Source of the DNA: Candidatus Brocadiia bacterium
Lineage (GTDB): Bacteria > Planctomycetota > Brocadiia > CAIUPP01
NCBI GenBank assembly: GCA_050015075.1
Contig: JBEKCB010000006.1
Location: 32,001-96,000 of the forward strand
DNA: 64,000 nt
Direction: 5' to 3'
The notes beneath the pieces were generated by a model. The model saw nothing but the letters and a program-made list of their open reading frames with translations. It did no database searches and had not been told where the DNA came from. Shown one piece after another: positions 8,419 to 15,655 of the stretch; position 1 is the first letter of the stretch; each line of letters starts with the position of its first letter. The position numbers were made by a program, and so were the translations under genes.

Positions 8419-8447
8419 TTGACACGCTCGCCGGGCGGTGCGATAAT
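8419..8447 (+). promoter_or_regulatory. sigma70 promoter for the cobalamin operon
   Basis: TTGACA-N17-GATAAT with extended -10 TG. Confidence 0.8.
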
Positions 8448-8468
8448 CCGACGAGTTGTTGCAACGCT

Positions 8469-8653
8469 CACAGGCGCCCGCGAGGGCGTGAAGGGAAGAC
8501 GGTGAAATTCCGTCGCGGTCCCGCCGCTGTGATCGGGGACGAAAGCCGCATCGCGCGCAGGAAACTGCGCGCGCTTGGCCACTGTTCGGGGCGATCCCCG
8601 GACGGGAAGGCGCGGCAAGTAGGATGATCCGAGAGCCAGAAGACCTGCCTGTG
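8469..8653 (+). promoter_or_regulatory. Cobalamin (AdoCbl) riboswitch
   Basis: AAGGGAAgaCGGTGaAATTCCG, CCCGCCGCTGTGA, GCCACTG, GGGAAGG, B12 box GAGCCAGAAGACCTGCC; closing stem CACAGGC/GCCTGTG; upstream of cob/btu genes. Confidence 0.95.
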
Positions 8654-8884
8654 CGCGCTTCGCTTCATGTCGCATGGCCCGCTCGCAGAGCGGGACATGC
8701 TAAGGCTCCGAGGCTGGGCTGATGAAGATGCGGCTGGGCGGCCACACCGATTGCTCCCCTGCGCCTTCGAGGCAAGGGGCATATTGTTGTTCCAACCCGC
8801 GCGCTCCATCCCTCGACCTCCGCCTCATGAAGTAACCCCGTCCGCGGCCTCCGGAAGAGAGTCCGCCATGGAAAGGAGAGGGAC

Positions 8885-9985
8885 GTGAGCAGTCAGCGTT
8901 ATCCTGGTCGCACGGTGAGGTCGCGCAGGTCGGCGCCGGCGTTTGGGGTGGGCGCGTTCACGCTGATCGAGATGCTGGCCGTCATCGCCATCATCGGTAT
9001 CCTGGCCGGGCTGCTTCTGCCCGCGATCACCGCCGCGCGCGAGCGCGGTCGCGAGGCCGCGTGCAGCAGCAACCTGCGCCAGCTCTTCATGGCCACGGAG
9101 ATGTACTGCAACCATTTCGATGAGTACTACTTCCCCGCCGCCCGCGACGTGAACACGACCAACCTCGAACGCTGGCACGGCATCCGCCAGCAGACCGGCA
9201 CCGATCCGGTGACAAGTGCGCCGATATACACCCCGTTCGACCCGAGCCTGGGCAAGCTCGCTCCGTACCTCTACATCAACACCGTCGTCAACACCACCGG
9301 CACCGCGGGTAACACCGGCACCGTCGAGGCGCAGATCAAGCAGTGCCCCACTTTCGCCGGCAAGTGGATCGGCGCGGGCGCTTATGAGATCGGCTGCGGC
9401 GGCTACGGCATGAGCCACCTGTACGTCGGCAGCCATGAATACAAGACGCCGGTCTACTATACGAGCGACGTGGTGAGCGCGCCGAGTACTTTCGACGACC
9501 TGACCGCCGTCGAATGCGGCTCCAACCGGCATGAAGTGCGCGTGCCGGAGCAGACGCTCCTCTTCGCCGATGCGGCCGCGCCGGACGCCAATTTCTCCGG
9601 CAAGGTCATCGAGTACTCCTTCGCGGAGCCGAACTACTTTACCAATTCCGGGCGGTGGGACCCGACGCTGCCGCCCTGGGGCGACTTCCATCCCGATCCG
9701 AACTATCCGCCCGACACCGTGGACCTCTCGCACTCGGACAATCCGTCGCTCCATTTCCGGCACACCGGCAATGCCAACGTCCTCTGGTGCGACGGGCACG
9801 TCAGCAGCGAGGGGCCGCTGTTCTCGCGGACGCTGACCGCGACGATCTTCTCAACCGGCTTGCAGACGTCCGTGGACTACTCGACGTACGGGCTCGGATG
9901 GTTCGGCGCCGACGACAACTCGGCCTTCCGGCTCGAGAAGAATACCGCGCAGTGCGTGCAGATCCCTGTTCCACCGGCGGAATAA
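8885..9985 (+). CDS. Prepilin-type N-terminal cleavage/methylation protein with H-X9-DG motif (DUF1559-like)
   Basis: [31 protein letters not shown]...CSSNLRQL; C-terminal [15 protein letters not shown]. Confidence 0.9.
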
Positions 9986-12971: not shown

Positions 12972-13894
12972 ACCGCGCGCGATATTGGATTGCGGCCGCT
13001 GCCGTTGTCGGCGCGCCGGCGGTCCTGTTTCTTTGCCTGAGCGCACGCGCTGCGCCGGCCGCTGGAGAGCCGGCCCGCAAGCCCCCTCAGCGAATCGTCT
13101 CGCTCGCGCCCAGCGTCACGGAGATGCTCTTTGCGCTCGGCCTGGGAGATCGCATCGTCGGCGCGACCGACCATTGCGACTTTCCGCCGGAGGCCAAAAA
13201 AATCCCGCGCGTCGGCGGACTCGGCCGGCCGAATGTCGAGAAGCTGCTTTCGCTCTCCCCGGATATCGTCATCGCGACTGATCTCGAGCGCAAGGACCTC
13301 GCCGAGGCGCTGCGGCGCGCCGGAATCAACGTGCTGGAGTTGAAGATCGGCAATTTCGCCGAACTCTTCGAGGCCGAGCGGAAGATCGGCGATGCCGTCG
13401 GCGAGCCGGAGGCCGCGGCCCGGCAAGTCCGTGAAATGCGGGCTCAGCTCGACGCGGCGGCGAAGCTCTCCGCGGGCGTCCCGCGCGACCGGCTGCCCAA
13501 GGTCTTCATCGAGGTCTGGTCCGATCCGCTCATCACCGCCGGAGGAAGGTCCTTTCTCGACGACGTCATCGCGCGCGCCGGCGGAGTGAATGTCGCGCAC
13601 GATCTCGTGCAGGATTATCCGACGATCAACCCCGAAAAAGTCGTCCAGTGGAACCCGGACGTGATCCTGCTCTGCTACATGACTGAAGCGAAGGACGCCG
13701 CGGCGCAGATCGCCGGCCGGATCGGCTGGGGCGGCATCAAGGCCGTGCGCGAAGGGCGGATCATCGCCGACATCTCGCCGGACGCGCTGCTGCGGCCGGG
13801 GCCGCGCCTCGTCGCCGGAGTGCTGCAGCTCGCCGAGCGGCTGCATCCGCCTCATGCCGCACAGCCCGCGCCGCGAAACCCGCCGGAGAAATGA
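12968..13894 (+). CDS. btuF: Cobalamin ABC transporter substrate-binding protein
   Basis: PQRIVSLAPSVTEMLFALG, EKVVQWNPDVI, RPGPR; GTG overlaps the cobS stop. Confidence 0.9.
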   Translation: MNRARYWIAAAAVVGAPAVLFLCLSARAAPAAGEPARKPPQRIVSLAPSVTEMLFALGLGDRIVGATDHCDFPPEAKKIPRVGGLGRPNVEKLLSLSPDIVIATDLERKDLAEALRRAGINVLELKIGNFAELFEAERKIGDAVGEPEAAARQVREMRAQLDAAAKLSAGVPRDRLPKVFIEVWSDPLITAGGRSFLDDVIARAGGVNVAHDLVQDYPTINPEKVVQWNPDVILLCYMTEAKDAAAQIAGRIGWGGIKAVREGRIIADISPDALLRPGPRLVAGVLQLAERLHPPHAAQPAPRNPPEK

Positions 13895-13901
13895 ACTCGC
13901 C

Positions 13902-14873
13902 ATGAATGCGCGACGCGGTTGGGGCATGTTCGTCATCCTGCTCGCCCTCCTGGCCGGAGCGTGCGCCTTGTCGCTCCTGGCCGGCCCGTCGTGGGTTCCG
14001 CTTTCGGAGATGCCTGAGTCAAACATCGTCCGGATGCGGGTCGCGCGCATCCTGCTGGGCATCATCGCCGGCGCGGGGCTTTCGGTCTCCGGCGTGATCT
14101 TCCAGGCGCTGCTGCGCAATCCGCTGGCGGAGCCTTACGTGCTGGGCGTCTCGTCCGGGGCCGGGCTCGGTGCGGCGGTGGCGATCGTGCTGGGTCTTAG
14201 CGGCACCGGCGTCTGGGGCGTGCCTGCCCTGGCCTTCATCGGCGCCCTGTTCACGATCCTGCTGGTTTACGGCCTCGCACGCACGTCCTCGGGCGCGGTC
14301 CCGGTGCCGACGCTCCTGCTCTCGGGCGTCATCGTCGGCGCGGTCTTGAGCAGCATCCTGATGTTCATCGTGTCCACCTCCGAAGGCGAGAAACTGCACA
14401 ACGTCATGTGGTGGCTCCTCGGAAGCCTGCAGGCGCTGGACTGGCGGCCGCTGGAGATTTCGGCCCCGCCGGTCGCGGCCGGGCTGCTGCTGGCGGTGCT
14501 CCTTTCGCGCGACCTGAACCTGATGACGCTCGGCGAGGAGCCCGCCGCGCACCTGGGACTGAACGTGGAGCAGACGAAGAAGCTGTTCTTCCTGGTGGCA
14601 TCGCTCATGACCGGCGCCACGGTGGCGGCGTGCGGGCTGATCGGCTTCGTCGGGCTGATCGTGCCGCATATCGCGCGGCTGATCATGGGGCCGGACCACC
14701 GGCGGCTGGTGCCGGCCGCGGCGCTGGCCGGGGCGACGTTTCTCGTCCTCGCCGACAGCTTCGCGCGCAGCGTGCTGCCGGTGGAAATCCCCATCGGCGT
14801 AGTCACTGCGTTCCTGGGCGGACCTTTCTTCCTGTTCATCCTGCGGCGCAGGACGTCGCCCTATTGGAGGTAG
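13902..14873 (+). CDS. btuC: Cobalamin/FecCD-family ABC transporter permease
   Basis: QALLRNPLAEPYVLGVSSGA, GLIGFVGLIVPH, EIPIGVVTA. Confidence 0.92.
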   Translation: MNARRGWGMFVILLALLAGACALSLLAGPSWVPLSEMPESNIVRMRVARILLGIIAGAGLSVSGVIFQALLRNPLAEPYVLGVSSGAGLGAAVAIVLGLSGTGVWGVPALAFIGALFTILLVYGLARTSSGAVPVPTLLLSGVIVGAVLSSILMFIVSTSEGEKLHNVMWWLLGSLQALDWRPLEISAPPVAAGLLLAVLLSRDLNLMTLGEEPAAHLGLNVEQTKKLFFLVASLMTGATVAACGLIGFVGLIVPHIARLIMGPDHRRLVPAAALAGATFLVLADSFARSVLPVEIPIGVVTAFLGGPFFLFILRRRTSPYWR

Positions 14874-14875
14874 CC

Positions 14876-15655
14876 GTGCTCTCGGTCAAGAACGTCAGCG
14901 CCGGATACGGCCGGAAGCTCGTGGTGCGCGATGTGACGATGCGCGTGGCCGAAGGCGAGTTCGTCGGGCTGATCGGCCCGAACGGCTCCGGCAAGACCAC
15001 CCTGCTGCGCGTCATCAGCGGCGTGCTGGCGCCGTCCGAGGGCGAGGTGCTGCTCCGCGACGCCCCGCTCCGGACGATCGGCAAGCGGCGGCTGGCGCAG
15101 ATGATGGCCTGCCTGCCGCAGGAGCTGGCCTCGGACCTGGCGTTCACGGTGCGGGAGATCGTGCTGATGGGGCGCTCGCCGCATCTTTCTAGGATCGGCC
15201 GCGAGACGCGGCAGGATTCCGAGGCGGCCGAGAAGGCGATGGCGCTGGCGGACATCGCGGACATCGCGGACCGTTTCATGACCGAGATCAGCGGCGGCGA
15301 GCGCCAGCGCGCGTTCATCGCGATGTGCCTGGCGCAGGAGCCGCAGATCCTGCTGCTCGACGAGCCGACGAGCCACCTGGACGTCGGCCACCAGTTGTCG
15401 CTGCTCGACCTGGTCAAGCGGCTGAACCGCCGGAGCGGAATGACCGTCGTCGCGGTCTTCCATGACCTGAACCTCGCCTCTGAGTACTGCGACCGGCTGC
15501 TGCTGCTCCACCAGGGCCGCGCCGAGGCGCTCGGCTCGCCGCAGGAAGTCCTCACGGCGGAAATCATCCGGCGGGTCTACCAGGCCAAAGTCCTCACCGA
15601 GCCGAACCTCGTCTCCGGCAAACCGCACATCGTCATCTCCGCCGGGACAGACTAA
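14876..15655 (+). CDS. btuD: Cobalamin/iron-chelate ABC transporter ATPase
   Basis: GPNGSGKTT, ISGGERQR, LLLDEPTSHLD, HDLNLA. Confidence 0.92.
   Translation: MLSVKNVSAGYGRKLVVRDVTMRVAEGEFVGLIGPNGSGKTTLLRVISGVLAPSEGEVLLRDAPLRTIGKRRLAQMMACLPQELASDLAFTVREIVLMGRSPHLSRIGRETRQDSEAAEKAMALADIADIADRFMTEISGGERQRAFIAMCLAQEPQILLLDEPTSHLDVGHQLSLLDLVKRLNRRSGMTVVAVFHDLNLASEYCDRLLLLHQGRAEALGSPQEVLTAEIIRRVYQAKVLTEPNLVSGKPHIVISAGTD

Follow-up and report, generated by a model that had tools for sequence, protein, structure and literature searches.

A prepilin gene led by a cobalamin riboswitch at the head of a corrinoid salvage operon in a Candidatus Brocadiia bacterium

The window analysed here is a DNA stretch of 64,000 nucleotides from a Candidatus Brocadiia bacterium (contig JBEKCB010000006.1, positions 32,001 to 96,000). 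It carries a corrinoid salvage operon whose first gene, placed behind a cobalamin (B12) riboswitch, encodes a protein of the H-X9-DG prepilin type. All elements of this unit lie on the forward strand. A sigma70-type promoter (8419..8447; TTGACA-17-TG-GATAAT) was assigned by consensus match only, with agreement at 11 of 12 positions; the hexamer consensus scan found two promoter-like sites for 0.2 expected, and both hexamers of the promoter are identical in the congener G095. The riboswitch aptamer (RF00174; 8455..8666) was identified with Rfam at 95.2 bits (E 2e-22; gathering threshold 31.5 bits) and matches the model over its full length (positions 1-189). A leader (8667..8884) separates it from the prepilin gene (8885..9985), which codes for 366 amino acids and belongs to a B12-linked clade characterized by a W-x-G motif (RWHG in the window protein).

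The TAA codon of the prepilin gene abuts the ATG of cobC (9986..10600; alpha-ribazole phosphatase, TIGR03162), which is followed by cobU (10602..11147; cobinamide kinase/guanylyltransferase, NF004469), cobT (11149..12216; TIGR03160) and cobS (12213..12971; TIGR00317), all four with matches above the respective cut-offs. The operon ends with genes coding a btuF-like periplasmic binding protein (12968..13894; PF01497), a btuC-like permease (13902..14873; PF01032) and a btuD-like ATPase (14876..15655). The names of these three rest on their Pfam class, on context and on NCBIfam matches that rank best or near-best (the BtuF model, BtuC as best match of the permease and a corrinoid ABC ATPase as best match of the ATPase), all below the equivalog cut-offs. 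After the 0 nt junction between the prepilin gene and cobC, the successive junctions measure +1, +1, -4, -4, +7 and +2 nt. An earlier note on this DNA had described a promoter, a riboswitch, a prepilin and a tightly coupled cobC-cobU-cobT-cobS-btuF-btuC-btuD series, and this architecture is confirmed throughout; only the starts of btuC and btuD are corrected, most likely to 13902 and 14876. The gene order is the same in G095 and in G094, a genome of the same family.

The leader is a candidate expression platform. A helix is possible between its segment 8803-8814 and the stretch holding the ribosome-binding site and GTG (8878-8890), and both arms of this helix are unchanged in G095. The helix is present in the minimum free energy and centroid folds, but with a z of -0.23 it is no better than in shuffled sequences, and the leader as a whole folds no more stably than its shuffled versions. 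The predicted pairing suggests translational control. A single terminator-like match in the leader (8763-8780) is at chance level and was rejected. Two metatranscriptomes, available as contigs only, hold exact pieces of the region (8620-8906, 8931-9141 and 9132-9290), none spanning the operon; a DNA origin of these pieces is possible and they were not used as evidence.

The prepilin scores above the cut-offs of TIGR04294 (22.9 versus 16.3 bits) and TIGR02532 (20.8 versus 19 bits). Its PF07596 (DUF1559) match is also above cut-off (34.7 bits), but covers only positions 2-44 of the 268 in the profile. A basic leader of 24 amino acids precedes the predicted cleavage site before F25 (nucleotide 8957), within the sequence GA/FTLIE (residues 23-29), which features Ala instead of Gly at position -1. 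RWHG occupies residues 96-99 (9170-9181), while H-X9-DG (9761-9796) is found in the C-terminal 16-residue segment at residues 290-305. There is no Pfam or NCBIfam match to a TonB-dependent barrel or plug in the protein, whose predicted model is of pilin type: the AlphaFold (AF2) models, with pLDDT of 84.5 and 94.3, display a long N-terminal helix (27-77) and a beta-sheet head. Their best structural match is PilA4 (Z 5.1-5.4, rmsd 3.5, 123 aligned positions) and the other top rows are mostly pilins. The alignment covers both the helix and the C-terminal sheet, and a large insertion carries the clade motifs. The computed models indicate, at modest Z, a type IV pilin fold with a large insertion. 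With Foldseek neither model had a match at E <= 0.001, and the clusters obtained from the ESM Atlas were all unnamed or DUF1559-like. No known B12-binding fold (BtuF, BtuG, BtuH, BtuJ) is among the matches listed in fold searches with the prepilin model, an absence that does not exclude such a fold.

The association with B12 extends well beyond the window. Of the 52 clade loci with at least 4 kb of upstream sequence, 48 have a same-strand riboswitch ahead of the gene (30/31 metagenome loci, 14/17 genome loci and 4/4 named GTDB loci). A further 54 clade loci were left uncounted because of their short length; the metagenome loci, which include near-duplicates, are the 80 best out of 377. Seven riboswitches served to build the scan model; five came from clade loci and were recovered independently by Rfam. 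Control prepilin loci, namely the generic prepilins that swamped a profile search with the first full-length alignment, have a riboswitch in one case out of 71 (one out of 48 once at least 4 kb of upstream DNA is required). This sole control is L010, where a classical DUF1559 gene is followed by DUF4465. With a broader profile, scoring at most 20 candidates per genome so that misses are possible, 25 carriers of the prepilin were found among 151 genomes of the window's phylum. The riboswitch is upstream in 22 of them, absent in two, and one locus runs into a contig edge; the switch is present in 10 of the 13 carriers that had no part in profile building, three of these 10 being congeners of a training genome. 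An independent sample of 201 genomes from Verrucomicrobiota, the phylum of a Chthoniobacteraceae metagenome-assembled genome, gave an Rfam B12 riboswitch in 16 of 20 top matches (20 of the best 21, one being skipped for its short flank), and in 17 of the same 20 a BtuH-like gene adjoins the prepilin. Among 20 hand-picked weaker matches of this phylum the switch is found in three, and six precede a btuF-like gene. The enrichment behind cobalamin riboswitches anticipated by the earlier note is thus borne out. Genome context argues for a strong link of the prepilin clade to B12. The riboswitch-led prepilin is conserved in no fewer than three phyla, Planctomycetota, Verrucomicrobiota and Hydrogenedentota.

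A tree of 91 rows places the window prepilin in a set of 26 with support 99, 22 of them riboswitch-led. The 43 riboswitch-led rows fall, with three exceptions, into a wider group of 49 rows with a support of 84; the exceptions are classical DUF1559 proteins, and rows of this classical type lie outside the clade of the window prepilin. The tree was computed with FastTree only, with no approximately unbiased test, and a motif filter had beforehand dropped most lower-scoring Verrucomicrobiota rows. The expectation that riboswitch-led homologues form one clade sharing RWHG therefore stands for a supported clade but fails as a statement on all riboswitch-led prepilins, whose monophyly is rejected. 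The classical DUF1559 genes behind cobalamin riboswitches are located at L010:7715-9779 (before a DUF4465 PEP-CTERM gene), L239:7559-8617 and L240:7409-8224. By their position in the tree they are a case of independent recruitment.

Members of the clade share the motifs R-W-x-G-x-R, F-E-x-G-x-G-G-Y-G-Y-N, I-E-Y-S-F-x-E-P and P-S-x-H-F-R-H. Conservation in 233 representatives is 100% for W97, 99% for G99, 97% for R96 and 86% for H98 (otherwise F, C or Y), while H290, H293, D303 and H305 reach 94-99%. The cleavage motif with F1 and E5 is conserved at 100%, a partly circular figure since the representatives were selected on that motif. Among 40 riboswitch-led rows, W-x-G occurs in 35 (15 of these with another residue at the His position), RWHG in 20 and HFRH in 35, the latter versus none of 32 control prepilins. 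The His residues of RWHG and of RH..DGH had been proposed as cobalt ligands. His98 is rejected as a universal ligand because it is not invariant, and DGH is not distinctive, being found also in 15 of the 32 controls; His290 and His293 are possible ligands to judge from their conservation. In the available text on BtuH2, B12 is bound by hydrogen bonds and packing and no cobalt ligation is described (PMC8941943), so that cobalt ligation is not required for B12 binding.

The commonest unit among homologous loci is a riboswitch followed by a DUF4465 or other secreted PEP-CTERM protein gene, a BtuH-like gene and the prepilin gene. The BtuH-like gene is directly upstream of the prepilin gene in 30 of 31 metagenome loci. 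The profile of this partner matches the BtuH2 C-terminal domain 7BIZ (E 3.5e-12) and 8BLW_B (E 3.6e-21), a similarity that amounts to homology only, the binding residues lying outside the comparison. We take 8BLW_B to be BtuG1, an assignment that fits a preprint (bioRxiv 10.1101/2022.11.17.516869) whose accessible text does not give the code. The 7BIZ entry is a B12-bound structure of BtuH2 (PMC8941943) and DUF4465 proteins are reported to bind B12 (PMC13398666). Other members of the clade precede btuFCD, DUF6580, cobCUTS, homocysteine methyltransferase or cbiX-cbiM genes. Ten database proteins are in-frame BtuH-like/prepilin fusions, as are five locus ORFs, of which two are near-identical (among the fusions are L009:5796-8876, L132, L149 and L440; P0153, P0166, P0170, P0172, P0179, P0225, P0246, P0249 and P0263). 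In the ten database proteins the two parts are joined by a hydrophobic segment followed by a short, basic linker; PEP occurs in eight of these proteins and the linker lacks Met in nine. Such a topology would allow one polypeptide to yield a surface binder and a pilin. The occurrence of the prepilin behind, or fused to, BtuH/BtuJ-type binders had been missed by the earlier note and strengthens the link to B12. At L318:1391-2951 two tandem H-X9-DG prepilins stand behind a BtuH-like gene under one riboswitch. DUF6580 membrane proteins, candidate inner-membrane corrinoid transporters, recur downstream in B12-switch operons (L198:7459-8133, L199, L200, L279 and L321). A series of riboswitch-led secreted proteins, some with PEP-CTERM and those scanned without other Pfam match (L379-L387, L396, L398, L008:6087-7142 and L127:4540-5556), are candidates for further B12 binders, and several are encoded in genomes with neither TonB receptor nor prepilin. 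Another riboswitch-led PEP-CTERM-like secreted protein (L372:1704-2570) has no match to the binder profiles.

The host genome (G000) is 93.6% complete and has two cobalamin riboswitches, one of which leads the window operon. It encodes cbiB and a cobD-cobQ fusion as well as 15 B12-binding domains over cut-off, whereas query searches gave no cbiA, cbiC or cbiX match; the bacterium therefore salvages corrinoids from outside and has a high demand for them. Its single TonB-dependent barrel (contig C19) is near neither riboswitch and has no TIGR01779 match at 1e-10, and a search of this genome with a BtuB-like query is negative at 1e-5, so the description of the operon as BtuB-less holds as far as examined. 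No BtuH-like or DUF4465 gene was found in the host. Pilus machinery is present, with 11 PilT-family genes over cut-off (one at window positions 56633-57778, reverse strand) and five secretins. Among its 22 prepilin-motif proteins only the window prepilin belongs to the W-x-G clade. The second riboswitch leads a gene for the radical SAM peptide-modifying enzyme CbpB (TIGR04163; L004:12479-14101, reverse strand, contig C24), a pairing that recurs in G099 (L243). Downstream of the operon, a PEP-CTERM gene (16039-16749) begins 380 nt beyond btuD and matches neither binder profile; it was left outside the unit. It opens a segment (16039-18978, forward strand) that continues with an ArsP_1 permease and TIGR03943 pair. 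A type ISP-like restriction-modification protein (Type_ISP_C, N6_Mtase) is encoded at 25490-29059 on the reverse strand.

TonB-dependent barrels are found in 113 of the 151 genomes of the phylum, and their distribution is anti-correlated with that of the prepilin. The receptor is absent in 19 of 25 carriers versus 19 of 126 non-carriers, an odds ratio of 17.8 in a test inflated by kinship; for seven carriers, absence was deduced from the genome not appearing among the matches listed. Counted by family, the receptor is missing from every carrier in seven of 12 carrier families and present in one of seven carriers in another, while the remaining four families have it. The 89 riboswitch-first loci examined, taken from the higher-scoring of about 215 riboswitch matches, include 20 that lead to a TonB receptor and eight that lead to an H-X9-DG pilin, with none leading to both; 33 of the 89 have less than 3.5 kb downstream.

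Taken with its regulon position and gene neighbourhood, the prepilin is very probably a component of corrinoid acquisition. The best single reading, to which we give a probability of roughly 0.45, is that of a corrinoid-binding minor (pseudo)pilin carrying out the outer-membrane step in place of BtuB. The operon would then be a B12-repressed salvage unit combining capture, import by BtuFCD and nucleotide-loop assembly by CobU, CobT, CobC and CobS. Cleavage by the prepilin peptidase would generate the mature minor pilin, which would be built into a type IV pilus or a fibre like that of type II secretion systems (T2SS), capture corrinoid either at the cell surface or inside the secretin channel, and deliver it to BtuF in the periplasm. 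BtuJ- and BtuH-like surface proteins, where relatives encode them, would supply the pilin with corrinoid. A bolder proposal is offered tentatively: bacteria of the Planctomycetes-Verrucomicrobia-Chlamydiae (PVC) group and their neighbours might import B12 by a retractile pilus or pseudopilus with a corrinoid-specific tip pilin and not by a TonB receptor, the H-X9-DG/DUF1559 family might be a library of substrate-specific uptake pilins, and some members might be two-product polyproteins (surface B12 binder and pilin) split by the prepilin peptidase.

Several observations weigh against the minor-pilin reading. Genome G221 has the prepilin locus together with a riboswitch-cob-btuB-exbBD-tonB operon; the earlier claim that carriers lack btuB survives as the tendency described above, while strict replacement, or mutual exclusion of prepilin and BtuB, is rejected. 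Conversely, 19 receptor-less genomes have no prepilin match, and 20 riboswitch loci of receptor-less or similar genomes, followed up to 12 kb downstream, show only secreted, BtuH-like or DUF4465 genes. Prepilin-free, receptor-less genomes with only secreted binders behind the switch imply that another route exists. No recognisable pilus-assembly genes occur among the loci whose neighbours were listed, so the prepilin must depend on an assembly apparatus that also serves about 22 other prepilins. The fold Z-scores (<8) fall short of what the tool treats as a confident match. Loci L188, L190 and L192, from three genomes of one genus, and L140 carry the prepilin gene without a riboswitch; one genome of that genus has switches before classical DUF1559 genes. 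Finally, a fractionation study places N_methyl+SBP_bac_10 proteins in detergent-soluble fractions and, in its available text, does not show them in pili (PMC8567305).

Some of these points would suit an inner-membrane-anchored periplasmic protein that binds and concentrates corrinoids, its helix being an anchor only, and passes them to BtuF after B12 has crossed by another pore. The prepilin gene often lies beside btuF/btuFCD or DUF6580, the listed loci lack assembly genes, the window genome has a prepilin without any surface binder found and coexistence with BtuB (G221) would be possible. We nevertheless regard this as unlikely, for it leaves unexplained both the depletion of TonB receptors among carriers and the invariant cleavage motif, partly circular as that figure is. 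A pseudopilin acting as a secretion adaptor, which would recruit the co-encoded BtuH/BtuJ-like binders for export or display by a T2SS without binding B12 itself, agrees with the position directly behind the BtuH-like gene in the metagenome loci and with fusions that fix a 1:1 ratio. It is improbable given that the window genome and many Planctomycetales-type loci have the prepilin with no BtuH-like/DUF4465 gene, and that BtuH-like genes also exist without a prepilin.

The large surface insertion of the pilin fold, and carriers in which the riboswitch-led prepilin stands alone or ahead of metabolic genes (L202, L205), would fit a B12-regulated adhesin or sensor that serves attachment to producer cells or signalling under B12 limitation, with no transport role. 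Its repeated coupling to transporters and B12 binders and the anti-correlation with TonB receptors make this slightly more improbable still. Capture of cobalt by the conserved His/Asp, in place of corrinoid, is very improbable. The conservation of H290, H293, D303 and H305 speaks for it, as do one locus before cbiX-cbiM and one before DUF2162-MotA/ExbB; against it, the partners are mostly corrinoid binders or BtuFCD, DGH is family-wide and free cobalt would be of little use to a host in which none of the ring-synthesis genes queried was found.

The prepilin gives a testable job to the DUF1559/H-X9-DG proteins, of which planctomycete genomes encode dozens without assigned function, and bears on how diderms with few or no TonB receptors import large solutes. 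A single-copy clade, one regulator and one defined, coloured and purchasable ligand make the questions of function and import directly testable. Should the pilus route prove true, outer-membrane import of micronutrients would gain a new class; even on a cautious reading, a new component of B12 scavenging in several phyla is indicated. The presence of the prepilin in the BtuB slot suggests an undescribed step of vitamin uptake. To our knowledge, no pilin has been described as importing a small cofactor. Open-licence PMC and bioRxiv text yielded no publication that pairs H-X9-DG, DUF1559 or prepilin with cobalamin or its riboswitch, although supplementary regulon tables could list such genes. 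A B12-switched prepilin in the BtuB slot is apparently undescribed before.

Uptake by BtuB-TonB and BtuFCD under a cobalamin riboswitch is the system known from E. coli. The window operon resembles it as a riboswitch-led unit with btuFCD and salvage genes; it differs by holding a pilin-fold protein, not a beta-barrel, in the receptor slot, and no btuB-like gene was found in the host. The likeness to DUF1559 (PF07596) and H-X9-DG (TIGR04294) proteins, a family given no function in the accessible text of two studies (PMC8567305, PMC10632474), lies in the prepilin motif, the post-helix C-x-x-N-L-R-Q and the C-terminal H-X9-DG. Unlike that family, the B12-linked clade is single-copy, tied to one nutrient and endowed with W-x-G, GYGYN and P-x-x-HFRH, absent from control prepilins. 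The pilin fold is shared with Neisseria ComP (5hz7; Z 4.1-4.6), and planctomycete pili-like fibres bind dextran, their subunits not being identified in the text available (PMC5394234). ComP and the dextran fibres are a precedent for ligand capture on fibres, not a proof, and their cargoes (DNA, dextran) are polymers. The closest parallel for the partner genes is the BtuJ-BtuH-BtuG-BtuB-BtuFCD relay of Bacteroides thetaiotaomicron (PMC13616437, PMC8941943, PMC13398666), in whose review the terms "pilin" and "Planctomycet" are absent from the main text as far as available (PMC13616437). The relay is mirrored in homologous loci, where genes for BtuJ (DUF4465) and BtuH-like domains stand under the switch, in some cases ahead of btuFCD. 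Unlike there, these binders carry PEP-CTERM or dockerin-like tails and are not lipoproteins on BtuB, BtuH and BtuJ were not found in the window genome, and a prepilin stands in place of BtuB/BtuG.

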